In this document: positions 273-62,467 of the stretch, piece by piece
Layout: each line of letters begins with the position of its first letter
How positions within the stretch are numbered: position 1 is the first letter of the stretch
Origin: an uncultured Lentisphaeraceae bacterium
GTDB lineage: Bacteria; Verrucomicrobiota; Kiritimatiellia; RFP12; UBA1067
Direction: 5' to 3'
Assembly: GCA_964557205.1 (NCBI GenBank)
Contig: CAZKZI010000001.1
Location: 29,284 to 93,283, forward strand
Length of the DNA stretch: 64,000 nucleotides
Position numbers and translations under genes: made by a program
The notes under the pieces: model-generated
What the model was told of the DNA's origin: nothing
The model's database searches: none
The model's input: only the letters and a program-made list of their open reading frames with translations

Positions 273-1274
273 ATGAAGAACATCGGGATCGCTGCCGGGG
301 TAATGATTTCTGTTGGCTGTGCGCAGGCGGATGCGGTTGTTTCGTCAGTGTTCCTCGGCGACCCGCTGCCGACGCCGTCGTGCCACGCCTCGACGATAAC
401 GGAGACTTCGGGGGGGATGGTGGCGGCGTGGTTCGGCGGCACACATGAGCAGCACCCGGATGTGGGCATCTGGCTGGCGCGGCAGGAGAGCGGAAAATGG
501 CTGCCCGCGCGGGAGGTTGCGAACGGTGTGCAGCCGGACGGCACGCGTCACCCTTGCTGGAACCCGGTGCTCTATACGGCCAAGGACGGGACGCTGGTGT
601 TGTTCTATAAGGTCGGGGCGGACTGCACATGGTGGTGGGGCGAGCGCATGGTCTCGCGCGACGGGGGTAAAACCTGGTCCGTGCCGGTCAAGCTGCCGAA
701 CGGCATGATCGGCCCGATCAAGAACAAGCCGCTGGCTTTGCCGGACGGGCGTGTGCTGTGCGGAGCCAGCACCGAGTTCGGTCCGTGGCTGGTGCATGTC
801 GAGACGACCGACGACGCGGGTGCGGTCTGGTCGCGCACGGGAAACCTGCACGGGCGGCACATCAACGCGATCCAGCCGAGTTTTCTGACACATCCGGATA
901 ACGTGCTGCAGATGGTCGGGCGGACAAAGGAGAAGCGGGTCTTCTCGATCTTCTCCAGTGACGGTGGCGCGACATGGGGCGAGATGACACTGCTGGAGGT
1001 GCCGAACCCGTGTTCGGGGACCGATGCGGTGACGCTCAAGGACGGACGGCACCTGCTGGTCTGCAATCCGGTGGAGAAGGGGCGTTCGCCGCTGTCGGTA
1101 ATGCTCTCCGGCGACGGCGTCAAGTGGCGCGAGGCGCTGGTTCTCGAAGACGAGCCCGGCAAGGAGTTCTCTTATCCGGCAGTGATTCAGGCGGCGGACG
1201 GCAAAGTGCATGTGACGTACACATGGAAGCGGAAAAACGTGCGGCATGTTGTGATCGATACGACGAAACTATAA
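273..1274 (+). CDS. BNR/Asp-box repeat exo-alpha-sialidase-like glycoside hydrolase (GH33-like), probable lipoprotein
   Basis: 333-aa ORF. N-terminal signal with Cys (ISVGCAQ). Asp-box motifs SRDGGKTWS and SSDGGATWG. Overall sialidase beta-propeller-like composition. Antisense ORF 345..1247 judged spurious. Confidence 0.75.
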   Translation: MKNIGIAAGVMISVGCAQADAVVSSVFLGDPLPTPSCHASTITETSGGMVAAWFGGTHEQHPDVGIWLARQESGKWLPAREVANGVQPDGTRHPCWNPVLYTAKDGTLVLFYKVGADCTWWWGERMVSRDGGKTWSVPVKLPNGMIGPIKNKPLALPDGRVLCGASTEFGPWLVHVETTDDAGAVWSRTGNLHGRHINAIQPSFLTHPDNVLQMVGRTKEKRVFSIFSSDGGATWGEMTLLEVPNPCSGTDAVTLKDGRHLLVCNPVEKGRSPLSVMLSGDGVKWREALVLEDEPGKEFSYPAVIQAADGKVHVTYTWKRKNVRHVVIDTTKL

Positions 1275-1299
1275 TGCGATACACGAAAGGAAAAGCCAA

Positions 1300-2529
1300 A
1301 TGACGACAAAACGAGCAATCAGCATGTTGATCATGTGTTTAGCGGGTATTGTGGCTGTGGGCGCACTGGCTGATACCCCGGAAATTACGGGCGTGACAGT
1401 GCGGCAGCGCTGGCCGTGGAGCCGGCTGGTGGACATTGATTATGTCCTGACCTGTAACCCGACGCAGCGGGTGGACATTGCTGTACATGCCTATAACGGG
1501 TCGGAGAAACTCTTTTTTCCCTTAGATGCTTTATCCGGTGATCTGATGAATATCGGACAGGGTGCCAAGCGCATCGTCTTGGATCCCGTTAAAACCGGCT
1601 ACACGAACGAAGCGCTCACGCAGTTCAGCGTGGAACTGACACCGACTGATCCGCCCGTTTACATGATCGTGGATCTGACCAGGGATGCGGGGACGGAAGG
1701 CCAGATCGAGTATGTGTACGAAGCGGATTTGACGAACGGCTTCTGGGGTTCCTGGGAGAGAAACCCGATTACAAATGAGACTGGAGAGGCCCTTGTCGAG
1801 TCTGTCATCTGGACCGGCGTGACGACCAATGCTATCTATAAGACGGACAAGCTCGTTCTGAGACGCGCGTCGGCGGGCTCCTTCACAATGGGAGATCCAC
1901 CCGGGACTTTGACGGAGGTAGATGAAGATTTCTACGTGAGCGTGTTCGCTGTGACTCAAGCGCAATGGGACAAGGTCACGGGAGGGAGCAGTACAGCCGT
2001 TACGCCTAAAGCGGCTTTGTCTTACAATGCCCTTCGGGGTGCGACGACAAACTCGCCCGCTGTTGACTGGCCCGAGACAGAATCCTATGTCGCGCCTGCC
2101 AGTTTCATAGCCAGGCTCCGAAATAAGACCGGTATCACCGACTTCGACCTGCCCACGCAAACGCAGTGGGAGTATGCGTGCCGGGCGGAAACAACAACCT
2201 ACTACAACGATGGCATAGAGGGGGACATCACAACCTACACCAACCGATTGGACAATCTGGCGTGGTGGAAAAACAACAGTGGTGGCGGTATAAAGGAAGT
2301 CGGGCTGAAGACCGCGAATGCCTGGGGGTTGTACGATATGCACGGCAATGTCTGGGAGTGGTGTCTGGATTGGTTTGATATATCATGCACGCAGCGCTAT
2401 ACGCGGGGCGGGGACAGACGTGTCGACTTCGATATCTGCCGTTCAGGGTTTAATGACAACGGTGGCGATCCGTCTGTCGGACAAAGCGGTTTCGGCTTGC
2501 GTCTTGTCCGAACACTGGAATGCCCTTGA
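1300..2529 (+). CDS. secreted protein with C-terminal formylglycine-generating-enzyme (FGE/SUMF1-type) domain and uncharacterised N-terminal domain
   Basis: 409 aa with signal peptide. Hallmark FGE-sulfatase motifs FTMGDPPG...VSVFAVTQAQW and GLYDMHGNVWEWCLDWF in the C-terminal half. N-terminal ~180 aa are not recognisable. Confidence 0.7.
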   Translation: MTTKRAISMLIMCLAGIVAVGALADTPEITGVTVRQRWPWSRLVDIDYVLTCNPTQRVDIAVHAYNGSEKLFFPLDALSGDLMNIGQGAKRIVLDPVKTGYTNEALTQFSVELTPTDPPVYMIVDLTRDAGTEGQIEYVYEADLTNGFWGSWERNPITNETGEALVESVIWTGVTTNAIYKTDKLVLRRASAGSFTMGDPPGTLTEVDEDFYVSVFAVTQAQWDKVTGGSSTAVTPKAALSYNALRGATTNSPAVDWPETESYVAPASFIARLRNKTGITDFDLPTQTQWEYACRAETTTYYNDGIEGDITTYTNRLDNLAWWKNNSGGGIKEVGLKTANAWGLYDMHGNVWEWCLDWFDISCTQRYTRGGDRRVDFDICRSGFNDNGGDPSVGQSGFGLRLVRTLECP

Positions 2530-2540
2530 CCTGAGCGGTT

Positions 2541-3977
2541 TTGGGGATGAATAAAAAAACCATAATGGCCTTGGGGGTTTTGTCGGCTGGGGTTTTATGG
2601 GCTAGTCCGCTCATTCACTCTGATTGTGCGAACGACCGGAAGGCGCCCTTGGTCTGGGACCGTCCGAAGGAGTTTGATCCCGGCAAGCCGCATCTCGGCC
2701 TGCCGGTACTGACAGGCGCAACCCATCGTGTGCTTTACGATCCGCTCCCGAGCGAGGCCGACAAGACCGGACGCTACGAAAGTCTGCGGCACGGCACTTA
2801 TAACCACCATCAAAGTTTTGTCCGCTACAAGGATCGGGTGATCGTACTGTGGACCAATCACATGCGGGATGAAAACGGTCCGGGAATGCGTTTTTTGGCG
2901 AAGACCGGACGACTGGCGGCAGACGAGTCGGATATCGATTGGGGCAAAGACGAGACGCTTTCGGAAATCGGCCCGTCCGCGCATCCGGTGCGGCGGCGCC
3001 GAAACAAGGACGACACTTCAGTGATCGACGGGATTTTCGTCAACTCGGGGCTGGAAGTTCTGGAAGACGGACGCCTGTTCGTCTCGACAAGTCTGAAAGT
3101 CTGCGACGGCTGGGCGGATGACATTCAATATCATGTGGGGCAGGGACTGCGGGAACCGATACCGGATGAGCATTACGAGGCTTATAAAACTGTTGGGCCT
3201 GACCGTAAGCGGGGGTTCCGCTGGGACATCTACTGGTACGTGGGGCGTTACTTGCAGCAGGTGGAGATGGATGATGCGGGCAGGATCAAGCCTGCGGGAC
3301 AGATGTATGTAGTCGGAAAACCGCCGAAGACTGAAATGCGCCTGACCCCGACAATCACCAAAAAACTCTTGCCGCTGAATGAACCCTACCGCAGCGCGGT
3401 GCCATACGGGAAGGCGCCTGAAGAGTTGCGGAGCGCCTATTCCACGGGGCGGAGGGTTGCATCCTGCGGGCGTACGCCGCGATACGCGCCCGGCACATTC
3501 AAACTGGCGGAAAACGGTAAAAACGGCTTGTTCCACAACACGGAGTTTGTTCGTCCGGACGGCATGTGGGTCGCGGTGCGGGACAATCTGCTCGATACGG
3601 AAATATATTACGCGGCAGTTAAAGGCGACAAAGACGGGTTTTATCCGCCGGGGCGCAGAACCAACATGTTCGGAGGCGTCATGCCGGTGGCAGGCGAGCT
3701 GCCGAGCGGCGCGGTCTGGCTGATCGGCAGCAACCTGAACCGCACGGAGGCCTTCATCACGCTCGCAAAGGACGGTATTCATTTCAACAAAACGTGGTCG
3801 CTGCTTTCGCTGAATCTAAAGGCCACGCTAGGCATCTGCAAGGGTAGCGGCGGCGCGCAGTATTTCAGACAGATCACTATCGGACCGAACATCTGGGTCG
3901 TGTACAGTATTGCCAAGGAACAGGTTGGGATCACGAAGATTCCAGTCGCGTTGCTGGAACAAAAATTGAAGGAATGA
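2541..3977 (+). CDS. secreted hypothetical protein, tandem paralog A (unknown fold; possibly a glycan-active beta-propeller)
   Basis: 478 aa with signal peptide. Long collinear identity with the next ORF, e.g. HRVLYDPLPSEADKTGRYESLRHGTYNHHQ and GPNIWVVYSIAKEQVGITKIPVALLEQKLK in both. No family recognised by eye. Confidence 0.6.
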   Translation: MGMNKKTIMALGVLSAGVLWASPLIHSDCANDRKAPLVWDRPKEFDPGKPHLGLPVLTGATHRVLYDPLPSEADKTGRYESLRHGTYNHHQSFVRYKDRVIVLWTNHMRDENGPGMRFLAKTGRLAADESDIDWGKDETLSEIGPSAHPVRRRRNKDDTSVIDGIFVNSGLEVLEDGRLFVSTSLKVCDGWADDIQYHVGQGLREPIPDEHYEAYKTVGPDRKRGFRWDIYWYVGRYLQQVEMDDAGRIKPAGQMYVVGKPPKTEMRLTPTITKKLLPLNEPYRSAVPYGKAPEELRSAYSTGRRVASCGRTPRYAPGTFKLAENGKNGLFHNTEFVRPDGMWVAVRDNLLDTEIYYAAVKGDKDGFYPPGRRTNMFGGVMPVAGELPSGAVWLIGSNLNRTEAFITLAKDGIHFNKTWSLLSLNLKATLGICKGSGGAQYFRQITIGPNIWVVYSIAKEQVGITKIPVALLEQKLKE

Positions 3978-4004
3978 GGAAATCCGCGGGGAAGGTAAGG
4001 ACGT

Positions 4005-5408
4005 ATGATGTTTTTCAGAAGTGGTCTTGCGGCGCTGGCCGCCGCGCTGGTTTGCGCGGAGGAGCCCCCGTTGGTCTGGAAGCAGCCTGCCGGGTTCGAT
4101 CCCGGTAAGGCGGGACTGGGCCTGCCGGTGCTTACGGGGACGACCCATCGGGTGCTTTACGATCCGCTTCCGAGCGAGGCCGACAAGACCGGGCGCTATG
4201 AAAGTCTGCGCCACGGGACGTATAACCACCATCAAACGTTTTTCCGTTATAACAACCGTGTGATTATACGGTGGACCAACCACATGCAGGATGAAAATGG
4301 CCCCGGACAACGCTGCCTGGCGAAGACCGGACGGCTGACGGAAGACGGATCGGATATTGACTGGGGCGGGGACGAGACACTCTCCGAGCTGTGTCCGCCC
4401 CCGCATCCTGTACGCCGCCGCAGGAGCGCGGACACCAATTCCGTGATAGACGGGTTATTCGCCACAGCAGGACTTCATATACTGGAAGACGGGCAGATGT
4501 TTGTTTCTGTCCAGGTGAAACTCTGTGAGGGCTGGACGGATGACCTGAAATATCACACCGGCCTTTCGGAGCCGGTTCCGGACGAACACTACAATCCGGG
4601 ACCCGACCGGAAGCGGGGTTTCAAGTGGGATATTTACTGGAAGATGGGTAATTACCTGCGGCAGGTCGAGATGGATGATACGGGCAGGATCATGCCGATT
4701 GGACCGATGTACATCATAGGAAAGCCGCCGCTTACAACGGAGTTGCAGATCACCCCGACGATCGCCAAAAAAATATTGCCTATGAACGAGCCCTACCGCA
4801 GCGCGGTGCCTTATGAGACCGCGCCTAAAGAGATCAGGGACGCCTATTCCAAGGGGCCAAGGGTTCCGTCTTGCAGACGTTCGCTAAAGTATGCACCGGG
4901 CACGTCTCTGCTGGCCGAGAACGGTAAGAACGGGTTGATGCACAGTACAGAGTTTGTCCGTCCGGACGGAAAATGGGTTGCGGTGCGGGACAACCTGCTG
5001 GATCTCAGGATTTATTACGCGGCGGTCAAGGACAAGCAAGACGAGGTTTATCCGCCGGGGCGCAGGACCAACCTTTTTGGGGCCGTGATGCCGGTCGCGG
5101 GAGAATTGCCGAGCGGCGCGGTCTGGCTGATCGGCAGCAATCTGAGCCGTACAGAGGCTTACATCACGCTCGCCAAGGACGGTATTCATTTCGAAAAAAC
5201 ATGGTCGCTGCTATCTTCACAGAATCTCAGAGCCATGCATGGCATCAGTAAGGCATCGTCCGGCATCTGCAAAGGCGGTGACGGCGCGCAGTATTTTCAT
5301 TCAGTGACTATCGGACCGAACATCTGGGTCGTGTACAGTATTGCCAAGGAACAGGTGGGGATCACGAAGATTCCGGTCGCGTTGTTGGAACAGAAGCTGA
5401 AAAAGTAA
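4005..5408 (+). CDS. secreted hypothetical protein, tandem paralog B
   Basis: 467 aa, roughly 65-70% identical to the 2541..3977 product over its full length. Signal peptide MMFFRSGLAALAAALVCA. Confidence 0.6.
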   Translation: MMFFRSGLAALAAALVCAEEPPLVWKQPAGFDPGKAGLGLPVLTGTTHRVLYDPLPSEADKTGRYESLRHGTYNHHQTFFRYNNRVIIRWTNHMQDENGPGQRCLAKTGRLTEDGSDIDWGGDETLSELCPPPHPVRRRRSADTNSVIDGLFATAGLHILEDGQMFVSVQVKLCEGWTDDLKYHTGLSEPVPDEHYNPGPDRKRGFKWDIYWKMGNYLRQVEMDDTGRIMPIGPMYIIGKPPLTTELQITPTIAKKILPMNEPYRSAVPYETAPKEIRDAYSKGPRVPSCRRSLKYAPGTSLLAENGKNGLMHSTEFVRPDGKWVAVRDNLLDLRIYYAAVKDKQDEVYPPGRRTNLFGAVMPVAGELPSGAVWLIGSNLSRTEAYITLAKDGIHFEKTWSLLSSQNLRAMHGISKASSGICKGGDGAQYFHSVTIGPNIWVVYSIAKEQVGITKIPVALLEQKLKK

Positions 5409-5416
5409 GGAGAAAA

Positions 5417-6331
5417 ATGTTGCCGAAACCTTTAAGGGGGGTGGTGCCGCCGATGGTCACCCCGTTGCTGGATAACGCTACGCTGGACGTTAAAGGTCTG
5501 GAGCGTCTGGTGGAGCATATGCTGGAGGGGCATATACACGGCCTGTTCCTGCTGGGGACGACGGGCGAGGCGCCGGACCTGAGTTACGAGCTGCGGCACG
5601 AACTGGTCAAAAGGGTCTGCAAGCTGGTGAAGGGACGCGTGCCGGTGCTGGTGGGCGTGACCGACACGGTATTCAAGGAAAGCCTGCGTCTGGCGGTCAC
5701 GGCCGCGGAGGCGGGGGCGGTGGCGGCGGTGGCCGCGCCGCCGTACTATTTCGCGCCGGGACAGCCGGAACTGGTCGAGTATTACAACCATCTGGCCGAC
5801 AGCCTGCCCTTGCCGCTGTTCCTCTACAACATGCCCTCGCACACGAAGGTCATGATCGACCCGTACACGGTCAAGGCGCTTGCGGGAAACGCGAATATCG
5901 TCGGCATCAAAGACAGCTCGGCGAATATCGTCTATTTCAACGCCGTGCGGCATATCCTGCGGGAACGCGCGGACTTCTCGGTGTTGCTGGGGCCGGAAGA
6001 GGCTTTGGGCGAAGTGGTGCTGATGGGCGCGCACGGCGGGGTGTGCGGCGGCGCAAACATCTTTCCACAGTTGTTCGTGGACGTTTACAATGCCGCGGTC
6101 GCCAGGGATGTGCGGCTGGTGCTGGAACTGCAGGAACGCGTCATGACCGTCAGCAGCTCGCTTTACGGGGTCGGCAGGCACATGTCTAGCTTCTTGAAAG
6201 GTGTGAAGTGCTCGCTGGATCTGATGGGTATATGCAGCGATTACATGGCGGATCCTTTCAGCCGCTTTCGCGAGGAGGAGCGCTCCATCATACGCGAGCG
6301 CCTGATCGCGCTGGGCGTGAAGGTGAAGTGA
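5417..6331 (+). CDS. dihydrodipicolinate synthase/N-acetylneuraminate lyase family (class I aldolase) protein, NanA-like paralog
   Basis: 304 aa. DapA/NanA-family motifs (GLFLLGTTGE, IVGIKDSS Schiff-base lysine context). A separate bona fide dapA lies at 61575..62444. Confidence 0.8.
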   Translation: MLPKPLRGVVPPMVTPLLDNATLDVKGLERLVEHMLEGHIHGLFLLGTTGEAPDLSYELRHELVKRVCKLVKGRVPVLVGVTDTVFKESLRLAVTAAEAGAVAAVAAPPYYFAPGQPELVEYYNHLADSLPLPLFLYNMPSHTKVMIDPYTVKALAGNANIVGIKDSSANIVYFNAVRHILRERADFSVLLGPEEALGEVVLMGAHGGVCGGANIFPQLFVDVYNAAVARDVRLVLELQERVMTVSSSLYGVGRHMSSFLKGVKCSLDLMGICSDYMADPFSRFREEERSIIRERLIALGVKVK

Positions 6332-6440
6332 ATAGTTAAGAGTGATAATTCTCATACGGGTTGAGAGTAGAGAGTTGAATGTTGGAAGGTGAGAGTTCAG
6401 GAAAACGTTCAACGTTCAACGTTGATTGACAGGGAGGGGT

Positions 6441-7928
6441 ATGCCGGGGTTGGCGCTGGTTGATCTTTTGGTGTTTGCGGCCTATATGGCGGGGGTGATC
6501 CTGTTCGGGTGCTCCTTCTATTTCCGCAAGGGGGCGCGGCAGGCGGCGACTTTCACGTCGGGGGCTGGCAGGCTGCCAGCCTGGGCGGTGGGGATGTCGA
6601 TCTTCGCGACTTTCGTGAGCAGCATCAGCTTTCTGGGGCTGCCGGCCAAGGCTTACACCGGCAACTGGAACGCCTTTGTCTTCAGCCTGACGATACCGGT
6701 GGCGGCTTGGATGGCGGCGCGCTTTTTCGTGCCGCTTTACCGGGGTATCGGCAGCGTTTCGGCCTACAGCTATCTGGAGACGCGTTTCGGGCCGTGGGCG
6801 CGGGTGTACGCTTCGCTCTGCTATCTGGTGACGCAGGTGGCGCGGATGGGCACGATCATGTATCTGCTGGCGTTGCCGCTGAACGCGCTGTTGGGGTGGC
6901 CGGTTCCGCTGATCATTCTGGTGACGGGCGTGGGGGTGCTGCTGTATTCAACGATGGGCGGCATCCAGGCTGTAATCTGGACGGATGCAGTGCAGGGGAT
7001 CGTACTGATCGCGGGGACGTTGCTGTGTCTGATGGTGCTGCTTTTCTCCTTGCCGGGCGGGCCGGGGCAGGCGTGGGAAATCGCGGTGGCGGCGGACAAG
7101 TTCAGCCTTGGGAGCTGGAGCCTGACGGATTGGGGCAGCGAGACCTTCTGGGTCTGTTTCATATACGGCGTGTTCATGAACCTGCAGAACTACGGTATCG
7201 ACCAGAACTACATCCAGCGTTACATGACCGCGCGGAATCAGCGCGACGCGGTGCGCTCGACGCTGTTCGGATCGTTGCTGTACGTGCCGGTCTCGTTCCT
7301 CTTTTTCGCGATCGGCACCGCGCTTTTCGCCTATTATCAGGCGCGTCCGGAGCTTCTGCCGCTTGAGGTGGCGGCGCGGCCGGACCAGGTTTTGCCGTTC
7401 TTTATCGTGCGGGGCTTGCCGAAAGGGGTTACGGGCTTGCTGATAGCGGCGATTTTCGCGGCAGGCATGAGCACGATCTCGACAAGCTTGAACAGCGGCA
7501 CAACGATCTTGTTGGAGGATTACTACAAGCGCTATGTCAACCGTGACGCGGATGACGCGCAGTCGCTGCGGGTGTTGCGTGTGGGAACGCTGGTGTTGGC
7601 GGCGTTGGGCGTGGGGTGCGCGTTGGCGATGATGCGTGTGCGCAGCGCCTTGGACGCCTGGTGGGCTTTGTCATCGGTTTTCAGCGGCGGTATGCTGGGA
7701 TTGTTCCTGTTGGGCTACTTCTCGAAAAAAGCGCGTAATTTCGAAGCGGCCATCGGCGCCGTGTTGGGGATCATGGTGATCGCCTGGATCAGCCTGATGC
7801 AGAAAATGTGGCCGCTGCCGGTCAAGATCCACACGAATCTGTCGATCGTGTTGGGCACGACGGTGATTTTTGTGTCGGGGTTCGCGCTGGCGGCGTTGCG
7901 CGGCAGGTGTCACGCAAGAAGGCAGTAG
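6441..7928 (+). CDS. sodium:solute symporter (SSS family) transporter
   Basis: ~495 aa polytopic membrane protein with SSS-family topology and composition. ATG at 6441 is preceded by GGGAGGGG RBS. The track start 6426 is a TTG. Confidence 0.8.
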   Translation: MPGLALVDLLVFAAYMAGVILFGCSFYFRKGARQAATFTSGAGRLPAWAVGMSIFATFVSSISFLGLPAKAYTGNWNAFVFSLTIPVAAWMAARFFVPLYRGIGSVSAYSYLETRFGPWARVYASLCYLVTQVARMGTIMYLLALPLNALLGWPVPLIILVTGVGVLLYSTMGGIQAVIWTDAVQGIVLIAGTLLCLMVLLFSLPGGPGQAWEIAVAADKFSLGSWSLTDWGSETFWVCFIYGVFMNLQNYGIDQNYIQRYMTARNQRDAVRSTLFGSLLYVPVSFLFFAIGTALFAYYQARPELLPLEVAARPDQVLPFFIVRGLPKGVTGLLIAAIFAAGMSTISTSLNSGTTILLEDYYKRYVNRDADDAQSLRVLRVGTLVLAALGVGCALAMMRVRSALDAWWALSSVFSGGMLGLFLLGYFSKKARNFEAAIGAVLGIMVIAWISLMQKMWPLPVKIHTNLSIVLGTTVIFVSGFALAALRGRCHARRQ

Positions 7929-8056
7929 AGATTAGTAGCCTCCCACCCGGGATTCCGGAAATGAACGAGGTGGCAACGGTTATCAACGAATTAACCGAAT
8001 GAGACGAATTATAATTAGCGTAATTCGGTGATAAAACTTGAAGTTGCCGACAAGGT

Positions 8057-10060
8057 GTGGGTATGATGAAAAAAAGAGTGTTGGCGTGCGCGGTGTTGGC
8101 GTGTGCGGTCGGTTTGTGTGCGCAGGAGGTCGGCAAGCAGAGGGTAGGCGAGCTGAAGCGTATGCCGTACAACAACCCTGGGCTGGAGACGGATTTGGGC
8201 GTTGGGCTTTGGGCATGGCCGCTACCTATGGATTACGACGGCGACGGCGATCTGGACCTGGTGGTGTCTTGTCCTGACAAGCCGTACAACGGAACCTATT
8301 ATTTTGAGAATCCGACCGGAACTACCGCGCGCAAGAAAGGGTTTTTAGGACTGGGAGGATCCGGGGCCATGCCGGTCTTCAAAGCGGGCCGGAGAATCGG
8401 GCGCGGTTTCACGAATATCCAGTTGTCGCAGGCGGGAGGGCGGACGGTGGTCACGGTTCCCGGGCAGATGTTTCCGGATTTCGCGAAATCGGTGTTTGAC
8501 CAGGGTGTGGCGATTGCAGGTGTCAAATCCAATATCCATTCCAACAACGTGCGTGGGAATGTCTGGCGGTTGGTGGATTACGATGGCGACGGCGTTCAAG
8601 ACATCGTGGTCGGTGTCGGCGACTGGAAGGCATACGGCTGGGATGACGGGTACGATGCTGAAGGCAACTGGACGCGCGGTCCGTTGCACGGCCTCGTTTA
8701 TTGGCTCCGCAACACCGGCACGGACGGGGAGCCGGTATATGCGGCGGCAAAACAGGTGCTCGCGGACGGCAAGCCGGTGGACGTTTACGGCAATCCGATG
8801 CCCATGTTCGAAGATTGGGACGATGACGGCGACCTCGACCTGATCTGCGGCGAGTTCATCGATGGTTTCACCTGTTTCGATAATGTCGGCACAAGGACGC
8901 GGCCGAGCTATGCGGCGGGGCAACGGGTGCATAGTAAGAGCGGCGCTCCGCTGGTGATGGACTTGCAGATGATCACGCCCACGGCCATCGACTGGGACGG
9001 CGACGGCGATTTAGACATAATCTGCGGTGACGAAGACGGGCGCGTGGCGTTCATCGAGAATACCGGAAGGCTGGACGCGCGGCATGTGCCGATATTCCGT
9101 GATCCGCGCTATTTCCGGCAGGAGGCCGCCGACATAAAGTTCGGCGCGCTGGTCACGCCGGTCGGCGTGGATTGGGACGGCGACGGCGACTGGGATTTTA
9201 TCTGCGGCAGCACAGCCGGGTATATCGCTTTCATCGAGAACTTGAGCGGCGCCGGGGTGGCGCATCCGAAATGGGCAGAGCCGCGACGGCTGGAGGCGGC
9301 GGGAGAGCCGATTCGCATATCGGCAGGGCCGAACGGAAGTATCCAGGGACCGTGCGAGGCCAAGTGGGGATACACGACCGTGAGCGTTGCTGACTGGGAC
9401 GGCGACGGTCTACCCGATCTGTTGGTGAACTCGATTTTAGGCAAGATCGTTTGGCACCGCAATGTTGGAACTCGGCATTCGCCGCGTCTGTCCGAGGCGC
9501 AGACCGTGGAGATCGAGTGGGAGGGCGCGCAACCGGAACTCGCGTGGGGGTGGATGCGTCCCGAGGGCAAGGCGCTGTTGACGCAGTGGCGCACCACGCC
9601 GGTGGCAGTGGACTGGAACAAAGACGGGCTGGTGGATTTGGTGATGCTGGATCATGAAGGATATCTGGCCTTTTTCGAGCGGGCGGAACGCGGCGGACGA
9701 CGTGTGCTGCTGCATCCGAAGAGAATTTTCCGCAACGCTAAAGGCGAACCTTTGCGCTTTAGCAGCGGACGGGCCGGCGGCAGCGGCCGCCGCAAGATTT
9801 GTATCGCGGATTGGAACGGTGACGGGAGGCTTGACATCCTGATCAACTCGAAAAACGTCGAGTTCTGGCGTCAGTTGGATGCTAAGGACGGACTCTGCCG
9901 CTTCGAGAACATGGGGTCGGTTTCGATGACCGTGCTGGCCGGCCACACCACCAGTCCGACCATCGTTGATTTCGACGCGGACGGGATTCCCGAAATGGCG
10001 ATCGGCGCGGAAGATGGTTATTTGTACTATCTCCATAACCCGCGTACGCCAGAAAAATAG
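8057..10060 (+). CDS. FG-GAP/VCBS repeat beta-propeller protein, secreted
   Basis: 667 aa. Signal peptide. At least 8 repeats of DxDGDGxxD(L/I)(V/I) type (DYDGDGDLDLVV, DWDDDGDLDLICG, DWDGDGDLDIICGDEDG, DWDGDGDWDFICG, DWNGDGRLDILIN, DFDADGIPEMAIGAEDG). Confidence 0.75.
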   Translation: MGMMKKRVLACAVLACAVGLCAQEVGKQRVGELKRMPYNNPGLETDLGVGLWAWPLPMDYDGDGDLDLVVSCPDKPYNGTYYFENPTGTTARKKGFLGLGGSGAMPVFKAGRRIGRGFTNIQLSQAGGRTVVTVPGQMFPDFAKSVFDQGVAIAGVKSNIHSNNVRGNVWRLVDYDGDGVQDIVVGVGDWKAYGWDDGYDAEGNWTRGPLHGLVYWLRNTGTDGEPVYAAAKQVLADGKPVDVYGNPMPMFEDWDDDGDLDLICGEFIDGFTCFDNVGTRTRPSYAAGQRVHSKSGAPLVMDLQMITPTAIDWDGDGDLDIICGDEDGRVAFIENTGRLDARHVPIFRDPRYFRQEAADIKFGALVTPVGVDWDGDGDWDFICGSTAGYIAFIENLSGAGVAHPKWAEPRRLEAAGEPIRISAGPNGSIQGPCEAKWGYTTVSVADWDGDGLPDLLVNSILGKIVWHRNVGTRHSPRLSEAQTVEIEWEGAQPELAWGWMRPEGKALLTQWRTTPVAVDWNKDGLVDLVMLDHEGYLAFFERAERGGRRVLLHPKRIFRNAKGEPLRFSSGRAGGSGRRKICIADWNGDGRLDILINSKNVEFWRQLDAKDGLCRFENMGSVSMTVLAGHTTSPTIVDFDADGIPEMAIGAEDGYLYYLHNPRTPEK

Positions 10061-12869: not shown

Positions 12870-12928
12870 CGAAAGAACCATTTGGGAGATGCCGATAGCA
12901 ATGCCGCTACGCTACCAACGCGAAACGC

Positions 12929-12958
12929 GCGGTTCTGGTCAATGCATTCCAGAACCGC
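12929..12958. terminator. GC-rich hairpin between convergent yidC and pgl (possible bidirectional terminator)
   Basis: Perfect 10-bp inverted repeat gcggttctgg / ccagaaccgc with 10-nt loop. No clear U-tract. Confidence 0.3.
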
Positions 12959-12967
12959 ACGCAATCG

Positions 12968-14038
12968 TTAAATTGCTGCGCCGAATTTGACGCAGACGGG
13001 TCTGTACATCGCGAGCGGGTCGTGCGCGGGGGTCAGGCGCCCCGTGACCGGGTCGTAGGCGTATGACATCAGCTCGTTTGAATTCTCATGCCCCAGCAGC
13101 ACGAACTTGCCGCCCGGCATGAACTCGAAGTCACGCGGCGATTGGCCTGCCAGTTTCGAGATCGCCAGCAACGACATCCTGCCGGTCTCGGAGTCGATGT
13201 CATAGGCGGCGATGCTGTCGTGGCCGCGGTTGGAGCCGAAAAGGCGGTGTCCGTCCGGCGCGAACTTGAGTGCCGAGGCTTTGCTGTAATCTTTGAAGTC
13301 GGGCGGCAGCATGCTGACGGTCTGGATGTGAACGAAAGCGTCGCCGGTATAAATGAAAGACGAGATGGTGTTGTTAAGCTCGTGCAGGAGATAGGCTGTC
13401 TTACGGTTGGAATGAAAAACTATGTGGCGCGGGCCTGCGCCGCCGGCGCTGGTGATCGTCAGTTCCGCTTTTTCCTTCAAGCCGGAGGCACGTCCCGGAA
13501 AGTCATAAACCTTGACCCGGTCGATACCGAGGTCAACTACGCACAGGTGTCGGCTGTCCGGCGACACTTCGGCGCAATGCGTGTGCGCCTTCTGCTGTCT
13601 TTTGGGGTCGGGCCCGCTGCCGGTGTGCTGGACGGTGACAGGCGGCGTGTCGGCAATGCTGCCATCGGGATTAATTTCAAAGACGCCTGCCACAGCGTTT
13701 GTGTATTCGGCGAAAACCAGCGCCCGCTCTGCAGGATCGAGAGCCACATAGCAGGGCGGCGTGACTCCGACGGGCTTGTGGTTGATCGGTAGCAGTTTAT
13801 CGTCTTTGATGGCGTACGCGGCTACGGCTCCGTTCGTGGCGCTGGGGCCGTACTCGGCCAGACTTTGGGCAGCATAAAGAAAGGTGTTGCTCCGGTTGAG
13901 CGTCAGGTAGATGGCGTTTTGGATGCCGCTGACAACGCCGACGGGCTGGAACGTGCCTTTTTCGGCATCAGTCTCGACAATGTGGATACCCTCTTTTTTC
14001 TCGTCAGTATAACATCCCACATAGGTGATGTATTTCAT
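12968..14038 (-). CDS. pgl: 6-phosphogluconolactonase (lactonase, 7-bladed beta-propeller / 3-carboxymuconate-cycloisomerase-type)
   Basis: 356 aa. N-terminus MKYITYVGCYTDEKKEGIHIV and overall Pgl/lactonase-family pattern. Confidence 0.7.
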   Translation of the reverse strand: MKYITYVGCYTDEKKEGIHIVETDAEKGTFQPVGVVSGIQNAIYLTLNRSNTFLYAAQSLAEYGPSATNGAVAAYAIKDDKLLPINHKPVGVTPPCYVALDPAERALVFAEYTNAVAGVFEINPDGSIADTPPVTVQHTGSGPDPKRQQKAHTHCAEVSPDSRHLCVVDLGIDRVKVYDFPGRASGLKEKAELTITSAGGAGPRHIVFHSNRKTAYLLHELNNTISSFIYTGDAFVHIQTVSMLPPDFKDYSKASALKFAPDGHRLFGSNRGHDSIAAYDIDSETGRMSLLAISKLAGQSPRDFEFMPGGKFVLLGHENSNELMSYAYDPVTGRLTPAHDPLAMYRPVCVKFGAAI

Positions 14039-14147
14039 AGCGGACTTTCTTTAGAGGGAAGTTTAATTGCCGTCAGCAGAAAAATATAATTGTCGCTGAC
14101 CAGTTTGGTATGCTGGCCTTTAAAATTTTCTGGCAGTCGTCTGACGC

Positions 14148-50838: not shown

Positions 50839-51217
50839 GGCTCTCCCCGTTTTATAAGCCCGCTCACAGGCCTGATACCTGTTTCATGCTGACTATTAAA
50901 CCAAAAATACGATACCCTGTCATGTCCACCATTTGGTTATATTTTTAGCAACCGCTCAGAAGTCAGTATTCACAAGGAAAACCCAGCCGGCCAAAAAGGA
51001 ACACCAAGCGAGAATGTAGATTGGGGATTTTCAATTTGCGATTTAGACTGGGTCTTGCGTCTTGGGGTCCTGAGTCCGAATAGCATGACCCTGAGGACGG
51101 TTCTGGGAACTATCCGCTCCAACATCTGCGATCCGCATGGTAGGGACGCATCCCCTGTTTTTCCCCTCTCCATTGCGTCCACTTGGTGGTCGCAATAACT
51201 GGTTCCTTAGTTTTCTC

Positions 51218-52363
51218 TTACGGGAGCTTGGTATTGGGTTTAACCGCATCTTGGGGCCAGGGATTCTTAGCTCCAAATACAAGCATCTGCGCACGAGTCT
51301 CGCTCACAAAAAAAGATTCGTCGATTTTTCCATCAACCTCGGTCACCCTGCTGAGATCCAGCTTTAAATGCTTTGCCAGAAAGGGGTAGGCTGCCATCCG
51401 TTTGGAAACGCCGTAATCATGCTTCTCCTCAGCAAAGTGGGCATTCTCAACTTTATCACCCGCATCGTAAAGCTCATAGACCTGCTTCACATAAGGATAT
51501 TCAACCTGCGGGGTGTTCACCGTCCAGTCATGTCCATTCGAAATCATCAGCATTGGACGTGGAGCGGCCATTGCGGCAATTTCAACATTGCTGGTTTTAT
51601 GCGTTTTGCTCCAGTGAATCGGCATACCGCTCTCGCATACACAGCCGCCAAAGAAATGGGCGGATATCTGGCAGACCGGAACACTCACCGCAATGCGAGG
51701 ATCAATCGCAGTCAGAATAAAAGTTTGTGTCCCGCCCCCTGAACAACCGGTCATTCCAATTCGCTTTGGATCGACATCCGGCAGCGTGAGCATAAAGTCC
51801 AGAACCCGAATGCTGTTCCATGTCATCAGCCTAAGAACCTCCGGTGTGTCTGCGTGTGACCAGCCAGCCTCCTTGGAATCGCCATAGCCAACCATGTCAT
51901 AAAGAAATACCGCCGCGCCCATCTTTGCCAGCACCGCGCAACGGCATTGGCGCGAATCTCGGAAACGTCCCCCATGTCCATGAGGGCAGAGAATACCGGC
52001 CAGCGAACCACTGAAATCGGCAGGACGGTAGAGAGTCCCCGTGACATAAAAACCAGGCGAACTTTGAATAGCTACGCTCTCGACAATATATCCGTTATAT
52101 GCACGCTTATTGTAAAACTGTGGCTTGAGATCAGTTCTCGCGGGAAGCTCTGTCAGCCTTGCACCTGCTAAAATGCCTGCCAATAAATTCGCCCGTCGTT
52201 TTTTCCATCCCGCCAAATCCGAGTAGGTGCTTTTAAACTCCGCGAGCTCTTTGACAGCTTCCTCCGGTGTCTGCGCATATCCCACCCGCAACTGAAGTTC
52301 ATCGGCATTGGCAGACACACAGAACAATAGTGATACAAACAAGAGAAACGTAATTTTTTTCAT
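51218..52363 (-). CDS. secreted alpha/beta-hydrolase esterase (acetyl-xylan-esterase/dienelactone-hydrolase-like)
   Basis: Signal peptide [20 protein letters not shown]. Nucleophile elbow TGCSGGG. GHGG oxyanion-like motif. GC content (~50%) lower than surrounding genome. Confidence 0.6.
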
Positions 52364-52492
52364 GTGCCAAAATATCTTTGTTTAATGGGAGTTTGTCAAG
52401 AATGTTAACTGGCGTGAGTTTATTTTAGGTTGTTTGTGTTTATATTTTTTGATTGTACTATCCCGCCCGTAAAGCTGATAATCTTTTCCACT

Positions 52493-53515
52493 ATGAAAAA
52501 AACATCTTTTGCATTCGTCGTCAGCGGTAGACTCTTGTCCGCCATCATCCTTGCGTTCACCACACTTGAAGGCACCGCCGCGCCATGTTGCGCTAACCCT
52601 TATATCGGCCGATGGGCCTTGACCATCCCCGGCGGAGGCGCGGGCTGGCTCGGCATCGAACAACAAGCCTGCGGCGCGCTCAAAGGCTCGATCCTCTGGG
52701 GCGGCGGTAGCGTCGTGCCCGTGAGCGAAACCAAGCTTGAAGGCAACACGCTGCTGATCGTCCGCAACCACAATCGCAAGAAGGACGGCAAGAGTGTGCA
52801 GTATGTCGAAACCATCACCGCCCGCCTCGATAACAACAAGCTGGCCCTGTCCACCCGCACCGTGGACGAGACCGGCAAACAGATCGGTCAGGCTGACTTC
52901 ACCGGCCAGCGCATTCCCGACCTTCCGTCGCGTCCGGATCTCGCCAAACTAAAGTTCGGTGCACCCGTCAAACTGATCGCCTCCACCGATCTCTCCGGCT
53001 GGAAGGCCATGAACGCGAAAGCCCCCAACTTCTGGTCGGTCGCCGACGGCACCCTCGGCAACCGTGTTCCAAAAGGCCCTGACAACAAAAAACTGCACGG
53101 CACCAACATCCGCACCGAGGCCGAGTTTGAGGATTTCAACCTCAAGACTGAAGTGCGCGTGCCCAAAAACGGCAACAGCGGCATCTACCTGCGCGGCATC
53201 TACGAGGTGCAGGTCGCGGAAACCTTCGGCAAACCTTGCGACTCCCACAACATGGGCGCGCTCTACAGCCGCATCACCCCCTCCAGTGCCGCCGAGAAAC
53301 CGGCCGACGAGTGGCAGACCCTCGACATCACCCTCGCCAACCGCCACCTGACCGTGATCCTAAACAACACCGTCATCATCGACAACCAGCCCGTGCTCGG
53401 CTGTACCGGCGGTGCCATGACCTCTGACGAATTCCGCCCCGGCCCGATCTACCTGCAAGGCGACCACACCAATGTCGACTACCGCAACATGATCCTGACT
53501 CCGATCGTCAAATAA
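52493..53515 (+). CDS. DUF1080 (3-keto-disaccharide hydrolase / LamG-like jelly-roll) domain protein, secreted
   Basis: Signal peptide. Duplicated jelly-roll with GIYLRGIYEVQVAETFGK and IYLQGDHTNVDYRNMIL motifs typical of DUF1080. ATG 52493 chosen. Confidence 0.65.
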   Translation: MKKTSFAFVVSGRLLSAIILAFTTLEGTAAPCCANPYIGRWALTIPGGGAGWLGIEQQACGALKGSILWGGGSVVPVSETKLEGNTLLIVRNHNRKKDGKSVQYVETITARLDNNKLALSTRTVDETGKQIGQADFTGQRIPDLPSRPDLAKLKFGAPVKLIASTDLSGWKAMNAKAPNFWSVADGTLGNRVPKGPDNKKLHGTNIRTEAEFEDFNLKTEVRVPKNGNSGIYLRGIYEVQVAETFGKPCDSHNMGALYSRITPSSAAEKPADEWQTLDITLANRHLTVILNNTVIIDNQPVLGCTGGAMTSDEFRPGPIYLQGDHTNVDYRNMILTPIVK

Positions 53516-53550
53516 CCGGTTTCCCCATCCGGTCAACTTGGTCAATTGTT

Positions 53551-53567
53551 AACTAGGGGACAGGTTG
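53551..53567. repeat. direct repeat copy 1 (aacTaggggacaggttg) immediately 3' of fucosidase gene
   Basis: 16/17 identical to 55401-55417 (aacCaggggacaggttg). The pair brackets the low-GC fucosidase gene plus its AT-rich upstream region (~1.85 kb). Confidence 0.55.
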
Positions 53568-53570
53568 AAA

Positions 53571-55034
53571 TCACTTTACCTCTACCTTTAAGGCAAAACC
53601 CGGAACATTGTTTCTGTTAATGACAGGCAGACTGATGTCAATCTTATCGCCTGAAATTTTCCATTCCAGCCTTCCCTTTTCGCCCAGTAGTCTTACACTC
53701 TTGATCTCGTGCCGGAGATCGTAAAGTGCTTTAACGCTTACCTTCCGGTTCACATTGGAAGCAATGGATATAACATAAACATTGTTGCCCTTCCTGGTAA
53801 ACCAGAAATCATCTGACGTAAAAACAGTATTAAACCCATGTTCTTTCCTGTCGGCAGTGCCTTTCATATCCAGGGTGGTAGATCCTTCTTTCCGAGTTGT
53901 CCAGCTGCCGGTGCCATAAATAGCCTCTCCGTTAATCTTCATCCAGGCCCCTATATCCTTTAATATTTTAACACTGGCCTCCGGTATTACCCCATTTTCG
54001 TCTGGCCCGACATTCAGCAGGTAATTTCCTCCCTTGCTGGCAATCTCAACAATCCAGAAAAGCATTTCATTTAATGATTTCCAGTCTTTATCATAGCTCT
54101 TATACCCCCAGGTGTTATTCAATGTTCCCGGGGTCTCCCATATTTTGTATCTACTGTTTATGGCAGTTGGAATCTGGTTGTCTCCAGCAGTAAGCAGATC
54201 CCCGAATCCATTTCCCACACGACTGTTTACAAGGCATTCGGGTTGATATTCATATACAAGCTTATAGAAATCAAAACTCTGCTGCCTGTTCATGTACCTG
54301 GGGAAATCGTACCATATTTCAACCAGGTCGGGAAATCTGGCGAGTATCTCCCTCATCTGTGGTTTTGCTTTGTTTTCAATATATTCATCGTATGATACCG
54401 GGGATGGATCCCATGTATTGGATGCATGTGTGTCATTCATCTTCGGATTAGCCTTTTTAGCCTGTGCTATTCCGGCATCACCCCCGTCCATCCAGTCAAT
54501 TGAATGGGAATAATATATACCGAATCTGATTCCGTATTTCTGGCAGGCCTTGTAAAGCTCCTCCATAGGATCGCGTTTAAAGGGAGTCAGATCATAAATG
54601 TTATAATCTGTAACCTTTGAATGGTACATGGCAAAGCCGTCATGATGCTTTGGCATGGCGACAATATACTTCATTCCAGCATCTTTAGCCAGCTTAACCC
54701 ACTCTTCCGCATTGAATCCCACTGGATTGAATGTTTTTGCAATTTCCCGGTATTCATCCCGCGGTATCTGTGCACTGTACATTATCCATTCACCTATTAT
54801 GGCCTGTCCTCCATGCGTTTCAGGAATGATATTTACTCCCTTATATATTCCACCAAGCTTTGAGTAAACGCCCCAGTGTATGAACATACCAAATTTAAGT
54901 TCATTATAACTCTTAAACTGATCCTTCTTTGACGAATACATCTTTCCCCATTCTGACTGGATCATGTCTTCTTCCTGTGAAAAAGCAAATCCAAAAGAAC
55001 AAAGACAGACTACAGCAAACACTATTTCTTTCAT
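53571..55034 (-). CDS. alpha-L-fucosidase, glycoside hydrolase family 29
   Basis: GH29 hallmarks FGMFIHWGVYS, KYIVAMPKHHDGFAMYHSKVTDYNI. Signal peptide MKEIVFAVVCLCSFGFAFSQ. Markedly low GC (~45%) versus ~62% flanks. ATG 55034 chosen (track start 55043 is TTG). Confidence 0.85.
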   Translation of the reverse strand: MKEIVFAVVCLCSFGFAFSQEEDMIQSEWGKMYSSKKDQFKSYNELKFGMFIHWGVYSKLGGIYKGVNIIPETHGGQAIIGEWIMYSAQIPRDEYREIAKTFNPVGFNAEEWVKLAKDAGMKYIVAMPKHHDGFAMYHSKVTDYNIYDLTPFKRDPMEELYKACQKYGIRFGIYYSHSIDWMDGGDAGIAQAKKANPKMNDTHASNTWDPSPVSYDEYIENKAKPQMREILARFPDLVEIWYDFPRYMNRQQSFDFYKLVYEYQPECLVNSRVGNGFGDLLTAGDNQIPTAINSRYKIWETPGTLNNTWGYKSYDKDWKSLNEMLFWIVEIASKGGNYLLNVGPDENGVIPEASVKILKDIGAWMKINGEAIYGTGSWTTRKEGSTTLDMKGTADRKEHGFNTVFTSDDFWFTRKGNNVYVISIASNVNRKVSVKALYDLRHEIKSVRLLGEKGRLEWKISGDKIDISLPVINRNNVPGFALKVEVK

Positions 55035-55400
55035 GGTATGCAACCTTTCCGGGGCAACCTCGATACGCCCGGTAGTTTTCAGACAGGGAAGAGCGCGAAG
55101 AACGGCCCTTTATGCCTGTACGTTACCTTTTCCCCACCTGCACCTGCAGACAGTCCAAAACTAATCCTTTAAAGCGCCAAGATTATCGCCTTTGCCAATT
55201 ACCGGCAAGTGTAATTAATTGGATGTGGGACAAAAAAGTGACTTTACCTTGTAAAGCGGTTCATGCGGCCTTCTTACGAAGAGTCGCCCATCTTTTTTAT
55301 GACTGGTAATGCCTCAGTTATTGGCAGGTAATTACTTCTAATTCCGTAGATCAATAATTATGTGATGAAAAAAATAAGGCTCCTCGGCAGAATTTGTGGG

Positions 55401-55417
55401 TAAACCAGGGGACAGGT
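55401..55417. repeat. direct repeat copy 2 (aacCaggggacaggttg) upstream of fucosidase cassette
   Basis: See copy 1 at 53551-53567. Confidence 0.55.
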
Positions 55418-55547
55418 TGTTTATGTTACCATACCACTGACAGCCGCGCGGACGCGTCTGCACCCGCCGCCTCCCAAACGCGGGCTTTGCGGTGTTCCGG
55501 CGATGTGTTACAGTACATCTATGCTTTATAGGTGAAGAGAATGTGAC

Positions 55548-55850
55548 ATGCCCACACTGCAATGGTTGGACGACGACCAGGCCCGGAGAACCGTCGAAAA
55601 GGTGCCGTACCGGATGCTCCGGCCGGACGATGCGCTCTCGTGCGGTGACACTGACATTGTCACCATGCTCATTCTGGGCGACAAGCGCACGGCCAGCGGG
55701 AACGTGCTCAATTCTACGGTTTACGCCGGCCTGCCGCCGTTTGACGGGCCGAAGGTGATTTACGGGGAGTGGTGCCAATGGGGCACGGAGCGGCTCAAGC
55801 GTGAAAAGGTGGCGTTCAAGCAGACGCCGTATGACATCCGCGTGCGATGA
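55548..55850 (+). CDS. hypothetical protein (100 aa)
   Basis: GC-consistent ORF with purine-rich RBS-like sequence upstream. No recognisable family. No signal peptide. Confidence 0.35.
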   Translation: MPTLQWLDDDQARRTVEKVPYRMLRPDDALSCGDTDIVTMLILGDKRTASGNVLNSTVYAGLPPFDGPKVIYGEWCQWGTERLKREKVAFKQTPYDIRVR

Positions 55851-55915
55851 GAAAAAAGAGCGAAAGAGGTTTAGCCGCAAAGAGCGCAGAGAACGAAAAG
55901 AAGGGAGAGATGGGT

Positions 55916-56323
55916 ATGAAGACCATGAAAGAGTTGTGCGATATCGTGCGGGAAACGGCGTATGCGATACACGTCTATCATGGTCAGGGGCATTTGGAGA
56001 AGGTTTACGAGAACGCCTTAGCCCATCGGTTGCGTAAGGCCGGCGTTGAGGTGATGCAGCAACAGCCGCTCACCGTGTATGACGAGGACGGAACGGTGAT
56101 CGGCGAGTATTTTGCGGATCTGTTTGTGGACGGCCGGCTGATTGTCGAGTTGAAGGCGTGTCGCGCGTTGGCGCCGGAACACACCGCGCAGACGCTGGGA
56201 TACTTGAAATCTGCGAGGATTGAGGATGGGATGCTGATCAACTTCGGGAGCTTCAGGTTTCAGATACAGAAGTATGCGTTGCGTGATGCGGTAAGGCCGA
56301 AAGAGGGAATTGAAGAGGTTTAG
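55916..56323 (+). CDS. GxxExxY family protein (PD-(D/E)XK-like small protein family)
   Basis: ~135 aa. VYENALAHRLRKAGVEV...YFADLFVDGRLIVELKA...HTAQTLGYLKSARIEDGMLINFG matches the GxxExxY family pattern. ATG 55916 with AAGGGAGAG RBS. Confidence 0.75.
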   Translation: MKTMKELCDIVRETAYAIHVYHGQGHLEKVYENALAHRLRKAGVEVMQQQPLTVYDEDGTVIGEYFADLFVDGRLIVELKACRALAPEHTAQTLGYLKSARIEDGMLINFGSFRFQIQKYALRDAVRPKEGIEEV

Positions 56324-62444: not shown

Positions 62445-62467
62445 CCCTTGGTAAAAAAAGACACAAT

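Follow-up and report, generated by a model that had tools for sequence, protein, structure and literature searches.

Two adjacent genes in the window, that is, the whole stretch of 64,000 nucleotides analysed here (positions 29,284 to 93,283 of contig CAZKZI010000001.1, assembly GCA_964557205.1, from an uncultured Lentisphaeraceae bacterium), encode paralogous proteins whose membership in the sialidase-like superfamily is nearly certain. Both genes lie on the + strand, paralog A at 2541..3977 (478 aa when read from a TTG, with a probable start at ATG 2547) and paralog B at 4005..5408 (467 aa, with a probable start at ATG 4008), and each product can be described as a GH143-like (BT_1020-like) five-bladed beta-propeller and a putative retaining exo-ulosonic-acid hydrolase. 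In the reading that we favour, with a probability of roughly 55%, A and B are secreted retaining exo-hydrolases that would free an ulosonic acid of the 3-deoxy-D-manno-octulosonic (Kdo), 3-deoxy-D-lyxo-heptulosaric (Dha), ketodeoxynononic (Kdn) or sialic acid type, while neighbouring genes would provide for its import and splitting. Judged from sequence comparison, catalytic competence is likely and an ulosonic-acid substrate probable; from the same evidence we infer the identity of the sugar, the retaining stereochemistry and a possible division of labour between the two copies.

The placement of A and B comes from structure and profile comparison. Neither protein has a Pfam-A or NCBIfam match at E ≤ 1, and in phmmer searches of both against the PDB no match went below E = 0.12. 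The best structural and profile match of their family is BT1020, and GH33 sialidases form the second tier of fold matches. The N-terminal domain of BT1020 is the founder of GH143 and acts as a Dha hydrolase on chain D of rhamnogalacturonan-II (RG-II) (PMC6811678, PMC13501991); the former source describes GH143 as a five-fold propeller retaining a Tyr-Glu pair (PMC6811678). The predicted model of A likewise has five blades and not six. Three alignments were compared, namely A1 (the family of A and B), A2 (30 GH143 sequences) and A3 (a bridging family of about 400 aa). The A1 profile reaches 5mqr_A at E 1.4e-4, and hhalign of A1 against A2 gives a probability of 94.6-95% and E-values of 4e-8 to 7e-8 over 343-357 columns with 20% identity. 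Homology to the GH143 propeller is thus detectable directly, and it is also detectable by way of A3, which derives from the second tier of an exhaustive search, made up of proteins of about 400 aa that match PF24067 and BNR_2 and are usually annotated 'exo-alpha-sialidase'. Indeed, A3 matches BT1020 at E 3.4e-47 and A1 with a probability of 100% (hhalign, E 1.7e-52), so that the gap between A and B and GH143 is bridged. The homology between A3 and A1 extends over the full length, with hidden Markov model (HMM) scores of 125-177 bits (125 for A and 147 for B), and includes the common motifs WxNH..DE.GPGQR, RPDG, R..S.DG..FDR, GxQY and YS..KE; A1 proteins are about 70 aa longer and fall below the Pfam thresholds. 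By these comparisons A and B belong to the BT_1020-like superfamily as a divergent clade, and two steps separate them from its sole characterised enzyme. An earlier note had taken them for members of an unrecognised family and for candidates for a novel glycoside hydrolase (GH) or processing-enzyme family. This is right only in part, since curated HMM libraries give no match but structure and profile-profile comparison gives them a firm place in the sialidase-like superfamily, with GH143 as the closest characterised relative.

The relation to the remaining sialidase-fold enzymes is more distant. The GH33 exo-sialidases and Kdo hydrolases (such as the C-terminal domain of BT1013) and GH181 (Akkermansia Amuc_1547) belong to the same superfamily, with a clan GH-E type propeller, and act on ulosonic acids. 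The positions of two carboxylate-binding arginines and of the nucleophile tyrosine are preserved in A1; however, these enzymes have six blades as opposed to five, and sequence similarity to A and B is undetectable without intermediate profiles. The three to five Asp-boxes and the RIP motif of GH33 are not found in A and B, as no PF02012 BNR match and no RIP tripeptide occurs in either sequence; a lone degenerate S-x-D-G-x-x-F box at 409-415 is also present in BT1020. Similarly, A and B have no match at E ≤ 1 to Pfam BNR_2 (PF13088, gathering threshold 31.4 bits), for which sub-threshold matches occur in 40 of 90 relatives, the best at E 1.1e-6.

The candidate active site can be read from residues that A1 shares with GH143. 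Numbered as in A and BT1020, respectively, the residues invariant in both are Y87/Y75, H89/H77, E111/E99, W134/W117, R401/R332, K434/K366, Q440-Y441/Q371-Y372, Y455-S456/Y392-S393 and K459-E460/K396-E397. Upon alignment of A3 with the Akkermansia GH181 structure 8axs (offset +21), E269, R285 and R351 of A3 fall on E218, R234 and R305 of GH181, which have been identified as the Glu neighbouring the position of the nucleophile and as two arginines that GH33 also has (PMC10067855). The A1 counterparts of these three residues are H332, R347 (with a register shift of one residue in the same 'RD' motif) and R401. The spacing from R401 to Tyr441 is 40 residues, as it is to the nucleophile position in A3, and 45 in GH181. 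A further set is invariant in A1 specifically (H107, D110, N112, R117, R152/153, H332, R338, D340, R347, D348 and N349), and by the topology of the model every invariant polar residue of A1 falls at the start of an A-strand or in a B-C loop, that is, on one propeller face. Compared with GH143, A1 carries additional insertions near 68-84 and 258-329. In the canonical sialidase Glu slot, A1 has the invariant His332, BT1020 has Ala265 and A3 has E269. Since this slot holds His in A1 and Ala in BT1020, there are several candidates for the partner of the tyrosine, which may be E111/E99, E460/E397 or, in A1, His332. In the same way, R117 as the first Arg and D110 as the acid/base of the sialidase scheme can be named as candidates only. 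Altogether, the pattern reads as a conserved catalytic core, with a putative Tyr nucleophile and carboxylate-binding arginines, set in a different substrate pocket.

In the mechanism that we propose, A and B would be placed in the periplasm or at the cell surface, where a terminal 2-keto-3-deoxy (ulosonic) acid would be cut by exo-cleavage from a glycan that is anionic and may be O-acetylated. Tyr441 would serve as the nucleophile, the C1 carboxylate would be held by R347, R401 and probably R117, and D110/E111 and His332 would occupy the acid/base and Tyr-activating positions. The SiaT-like Na+ symporter encoded next to them would take up the freed sugar acid, which the neighbouring aldolase of the dihydrodipicolinate synthase (DHDPS) family would split in the cytoplasm to pyruvate and an aldose. 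The same fold could also act on a non-ulosonic sugar or carry out another chemistry, such as that of a lyase, a transglycosylase or an esterase, with the symporter and the aldolase serving another step. This appears unlikely, as the characterised enzymes of the closest structural tier (GH143, GH33, GH181) all have 2-keto-3-deoxy acid sugars as their substrates, two arginines sit on the sialidase carboxylate-binding positions and the Tyr is invariant, and a gene for a SiaT-like transporter directly adjoins the family gene in four loci that are phylogenetically far apart. That A and B are non-catalytic pseudo-enzymes or lectins that bind glycans through a sialidase-like fold is highly improbable. 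Inactive sialidase-like proteins do have precedent (the Trypanosoma cruzi trans-sialidase isoform 3pjq is among the fold matches), and activity of A and B is a matter of prediction; against this, some twenty polar residues, among them the Tyr, Glu and Arg in common with GH143, show little or no variation over 90 sequences and map to a single face of the propeller, the ratio of nonsynonymous to synonymous substitution rates (dN/dS) between A and B is 0.19, and the fusion partners of family members are catalytic modules and modules resembling carbohydrate-binding modules (CBMs), as is typical of enzymes.

The closeness to BT1020 raises the question of whether A and B belong to GH143 itself, as Dha hydrolases for side chain D of RG-II, and have simply diverged too far for HMM libraries to recognise. 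BT1020 is the best structural and profile match, five blades as well as Tyr372 and Arg332 are conserved, one family member is fused to a pectate lyase (P0292), and the family is present in plant-fibre-degrading gut bacteria of the Planctomycetota-Verrucomicrobiota-Chlamydiota (PVC) group. The comparison was based on the intact BT1020 open reading frame (ORF) recovered from a metagenome scan (L049:2059..5388), whose Pfam architecture consists of PF24067 Beta-prop_BT_1020 (27-263), a weak BNR_2 match (283-381), the Sialidase-like CBM (432-587) and a GH142 domain. A search for GH143 returned 3366 hits, of which the best 120 are all at least 62% identical and all carry PF24067; the Sialidase-like CBM (PF22585) is found in nearly all full-length sequences among these 120 and is absent from A and B. 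GH143 proper is a large but tight family, in which fusion to GH142 is frequent. With a GH143 HMM built here and Pfam PF24067 as proxies for dbCAN family recognition, family members score at most 29 bits over about 80 of 615 positions (about 13% of the length) and PF24067 matches neither A nor B at E ≤ 1 and no member out of 90 at E ≤ 0.1. Identity to GH143 is only about 20%, and the GH143-invariant arginines R59, R62, R153, R188, R191, R301, R360 and R374 are not kept in A1, so that the substrate need not be Dha. Neither the GH142 partner nor another beta-L-arabinofuranosidase is encoded nearby, and the genomic context resembles a nan cluster and not an RG-II polysaccharide utilization locus. 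Taking these points together, we regard assignment to GH143 proper as distinctly unlikely.

The genes that surround A and B speak to the substrate. The genes in 273..10060 share the + strand and are spaced 8-128 nt apart, and those directly after B encode an aldolase and a transporter. The aldolase (5417..6331, +; PF00701, 8e-56) is a class I (pyruvate) aldolase paralog of the DHDPS/NanA family. It scores 187 bits against TIGR00674 dapA, for which the cut-off is 206, and carries the motif LYNMPSHT as against LYNVP(S/G)RT in genuine DapA, with His where 2yxg and 3pud have Arg. This Arg (R138 in E. coli) is the aspartate-semialdehyde-binding residue of DHDPS. Genuine dapA (61575..62444, +; TIGR00674, 345 bits) and dapB (62378..63280, +; TIGR00036, 257 bits) lie side by side elsewhere in the window, which makes the 5417..6331 product a specialised paralog; by its score, its motif and the presence of the true dapA-dapB pair, it is ruled out as the housekeeping DapA. 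Its closest solved relative is PDB 4XKY (392 bits), which shares the LYNMP(S/T)HT motif with His in place of the substrate-binding Arg. This structure was deposited as a Bacteroides thetaiotaomicron dihydrodipicolinate synthase; its motif suggests that it may be a non-DapA aldolase paralog instead of a housekeeping enzyme. The NanA-like lyase of the earlier note is thus indeed a DHDPS/NanA-family paralog distinct from housekeeping DapA, but it is closer to DapA-like proteins than to NanA and is not a NanA equivalog. The transporter (6426..7928, probable start 6450, +; PF00474, 4e-44) is a SiaT-like sodium:solute symporter (SSS) whose best PDB match is SiaT 5nv9 (268 bits, E 1.2e-78). SiaT Arg135, which has a role in carboxylate binding, has its aligned counterpart conserved in the transporter.

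With a predicted sialidase-fold hydrolase, a SiaT-like symporter and a DHDPS/NanA-family aldolase, the co-directional block in the window resembles nan clusters, which combine a sialidase, a SiaT-type SSS and the NanA lyase, with or without the NanS esterase; the esterase part is matched in several relatives of A and B. One could take A and B for ordinary sialidases whose targets are N-acetylneuraminic acid (Neu5Ac) or further nonulosonic acids, carried by host mucins or by the surfaces of microbes; the cluster would then amount to a nan system in its minimal form, with sialidase, SiaT and NanA. In favour of this, the solved structure closest to the transporter is that of a Neu5Ac symporter (SiaT), GH33 provides the second tier of fold matches, many members are from PVC bacteria of the gut (Victivallis, Lentisphaeria of horse faeces and Opitutaceae of termites), and a gene for an N-acetylglucosamine (GlcNAc) 2-epimerase adjoins a family gene, in L003 only. 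Differences from nan clusters are also evident, since the hydrolase is GH143-like and not GH33, the aldolase is not a NanA equivalog, and no NanE, NanK or GlcNAc 2-epimerase is encoded in the window cluster, in the closest long-contig relative (L128) or in the source contig (L129). Because of the lack of these enzymes and the non-NanA aldolase, the evidence leans towards a non-aminated sugar (Kdo, Dha or Kdn) over Neu5Ac, and the ordinary sialidase is judged to be rather unlikely. For the exo-hydrolase of ulosonic acids that we prefer, the carbohydrate-active role on a sialic-like or ulosonic sugar, as had been proposed before, finds backing in the fold, the conserved residues and the gene context alike.

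The context recurs in relatives. Co-occurrence was counted over 33 loci with at least 4 kb of flanking sequence; 9 of them have a symporter homolog, directly adjacent in 4, and 6 have a DHDPS-family gene, over a range that spans Victivallis, Lentisphaeria, Opitutaceae and Planctomycetes. In particular, a compact module of aldolase, family gene and symporter is present in Victivallis vadensis (L039) and in a horse-gut Lentisphaeria metagenome-assembled genome (L013), the latter with an additional FGGY kinase, GFO/IDH/MocA oxidoreductase and xylose-isomerase-like TIM protein. AXE1-type esterase genes lie near or directly downstream of the family gene in L007, L011, L013, L014 and L037. L128, with 65% identity to the family gene, holds the set BNR_2, SSF, three genes for the fold of formylglycine-generating enzymes (FGEs), family gene, NHL/SGL propeller, FG-GAP, a 436-aa BNR protein, DHDPS, SSF and BNR_2, and so repeats nearly all genes of the window cluster. 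The earlier note had left the conservation of the neighbourhood to be checked; upon inspection of L128, of the Kiritimatiellae locus L004 and of the 33 loci, it is conserved. As regards RG-II, BT1013 combines a GH78 with a Kdo hydrolase, both of which act on chain C (PMC13501991), and this pairing is mirrored, in a single case, by a GH78 alpha-L-rhamnosidase gene directly upstream of the family gene in Geminisphaera colitermitum TAV2 (L007:7042-9885). Since GH78 is found in L007 alone and GH142 near none of the family genes across all loci, a link to chain C or D of RG-II is anecdotal.

Several observations weigh against A and B being exo-hydrolases for ulosonic acids that are then imported and split. 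Neither the A1 clade nor the bridging A3 family has a characterised member, and activity is by inference only. The eight invariant arginines of GH143 are lost, and the canonical Glu slot of sialidases holds a His. The gathering of the conserved residues in one pocket is deduced from the strand topology of a predicted model. The co-occurrence with symporter and aldolase amounts to 18-27% of loci, and many family genes stand in unrelated contexts. Finally, the window cluster encodes no kinase, epimerase or other downstream gene.

A bolder proposal, which we consider speculative and rather improbable, is that A1 represents a new GH family, or a deep subfamily of GH143, for Kdo-type or related non-aminated ulosonic acids that uses the Tyr together with the invariant H332, and that together with the symporter and the His-for-Arg DHDPS paralog it forms an undescribed ulosonic-acid catabolic module of PVC bacteria. 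Kdo aldolase (EC 4.1.2.23) has, to our knowledge, no assigned gene. If the proposal were true, the aldolase gene at 5417..6331 would be a candidate for this activity. A 2025 paper cites Kdo aldolase by EC number and by biochemistry from 1966-1990 only. More generally, a single enzyme has been characterised in GH143, and little exploration has gone into enzymes of the sialidase fold that act on non-sialic ulosonic acids such as Kdo and Dha. For the A1 clade the predicted model is of high confidence, the candidate active site is clear, with the canonical Glu slot unusually filled by His, and the transporter and aldolase form a compact context; its presence in cultured strains makes it directly testable. 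Its characterization could add a specificity or a GH family or subfamily, and could reveal the use of acidic sugars from pectin, algal walls, capsules or lipopolysaccharide by gut and sediment PVC bacteria. As the fold, the likely chemistry and the logic of the cluster all have precedents, A1 is a useful lead for enzyme discovery that overturns no concept.

The A1 family proper is small. A homolog search returned 125 proteins, every one of them named 'hypothetical', and an exhaustive profile search over 1.84 billion cluster representatives gave 59 hits at E ≤ 1e-30, 347 at E ≤ 1e-10 and 771 at E ≤ 1e-3. A literature search on the A1 family or on new Kdo/ulosonic hydrolase families found nothing relevant. 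Among species-representative genomes there are 42 family loci, about 36 of these in PVC phyla (Kiritimatiellae, Lentisphaerae/Victivallis, Verrucomicrobiota/Opitutaceae and Planctomycetota), with a few in Latescibacterota, Polyangiaceae and Desulfobacteraceae. Isolates with family genes include Victivallis vadensis DSM 14823, Geminisphaera colitermitum TAV2 and Poriferisphaera sp. WC338. A and B end directly after the propeller, and longer members carry Laminin_G_3, 3keto-disac_hyd or AXE1 domains. In three natural fusions the partner of the family domain is a further BT_1020-like/BNR_2 propeller (P0279, 846 aa), Ig domains plus a pectate-lyase beta-helix (P0292, 1571 aa) or an AXE1 esterase (P0090, 821 aa); as Rosetta-stone pointers these fusions hint at acidic, acetylated polysaccharide substrates.

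The two genes are an old tandem duplication. Two adjacent genes for secreted paralogs had been reported in the earlier note, and both ORFs are present on the + strand, with the three sequence blocks quoted there found in both proteins. The paralogy is full-length, and the identity of 65-70% estimated by eye proved slightly low, BLASTP giving 334/459 (73%, E = 0). The public gene calls begin two codons later than the ORF for A (ATG 2547, 476 aa, P0001) and one codon later for B (ATG 4008, 466 aa, P0003). Of 77 columns that are at least 90% conserved in the other 88 family members, 74-75 are retained by A and by B each, and with the dN/dS of 0.19 and a dS of about 0.95 this indicates that the duplication is old and that both copies are under purifying selection. 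A and B form a sub-clade with one foreign homolog, P0002, and no third family paralog was found in the window. Both proteins begin with a basic n-region and a hydrophobic stretch (mean Kyte-Doolittle values of 2.2 and 2.7, respectively, over 10 residues), as do 60 of the 90 family members, and residues 1-31 of the predicted A model are of low confidence; this fits a predicted cleaved signal peptide in A and B. At the nucleotide level, the last 95 nt of A (3876..3970) and B (5307..5401) are 94% identical, with an exact run of about 50 nt, compared with 75% over the whole genes, and synonymous third positions are about 90% identical in this 3' tract versus about 60% elsewhere. The near-identical 3' tract suggests gene conversion between the tandem copies. 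A second, weaker tract of similarity lies at codons ~55-85.

The remaining genes of the cluster are in agreement with the neighbours listed earlier, namely BNR_2, an FGE-domain protein, a DHDPS-family protein and an SSS transporter. The gene at 273..1274 (+; PF13088, 1.9e-86, full model) encodes a BNR_2 sialidase-like beta-propeller of 333 aa with a hydrophobic N-terminus, whose sequence matches to sialidases in the PDB are all weak, the best at 1.7e-5. It is followed by a gene for a secreted protein (1300..2529, +) with a C-terminal FGE-sulfatase-fold domain at residues 192-404 (PF03781, 6.5e-26) and an N-terminal part of about 190 aa without an assigned domain. True formylglycine-generating enzymes carry a CxxxxC cysteine pair. 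No such pair is seen near the C-terminus of the 1300..2529 product, which thus appears from its sequence to lack the catalytic cysteines of real FGEs, and no sulfatase is encoded in the cluster; the sulfated-sugar function that had also been considered finds no support in these results. Relatives share this arrangement. In L004 the FGE-fold gene, the family gene and BNR_2 stand in a row, with the FGE-fold homolog directly upstream of the family gene 53% identical to the 1300..2529 product and the adjoining BNR_2 copy 84% identical to that of 273..1274, and in L128 the three FGE-fold genes are tandem copies directly upstream of the family gene (L128:5594-9738). The FGE-fold protein is thus a conserved and unexplained partner within the Kiritimatiellae-like clade. 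The last co-directional gene, at 8057..10060 (+; PF13517, 2e-29; PF01839, 1.6e-12), encodes a secreted FG-GAP/VCBS-repeat protein to which the 676-aa FG-GAP protein of L128 is homologous, and is followed by the housekeeping genes rnpA-yidD-yidC.

On the source contig the cluster extends upstream of the window with a LamG/FG-GAP protein, an NHL/SGL propeller and a 439-aa BNR/Asp-box protein, the last of which was considered as a family member and is not one. An IS110-family transposase gene (L129:5819-6862, about 1 kb upstream of window position 1) parts the BNR_2 gene from these upstream genes, which are contiguous with the cluster in L128. Among the other loci, proteins with a prepilin-type N-terminal methylation motif adjoin family genes in nine (L013, L020, L027, L028, L029, L037, L039, L042 and L045), the PF07963 match having been checked on one of them (L027:1257-2024), and nucleoside-hydrolase-like (PF01156) genes recur in seven of the 33 loci with long flanks.

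Elsewhere in the window, promoter and terminator scans added nothing informative, and Rfam gave no family at gathering score over the whole 64 kb, despite a large block of ribosomal-protein genes. At ~12900..14100 the GC skew changes sign and gene orientation flips, with rnpA-yidD-yidC on the + strand before it and a lactonase, secY and the ribosomal-protein operon on the - strand after it; in this origin-like region DnaA-box-like 9-mers are no commoner than in shuffles, and no dnaA is found nearby. Finally, the segment ~51200..56000 has a GC content of 0.47 versus about 0.57 elsewhere and includes two signal-peptide-bearing ORFs without an NCBIfam match (51218..52363 and 53571..55043); it may represent a horizontally acquired patch.

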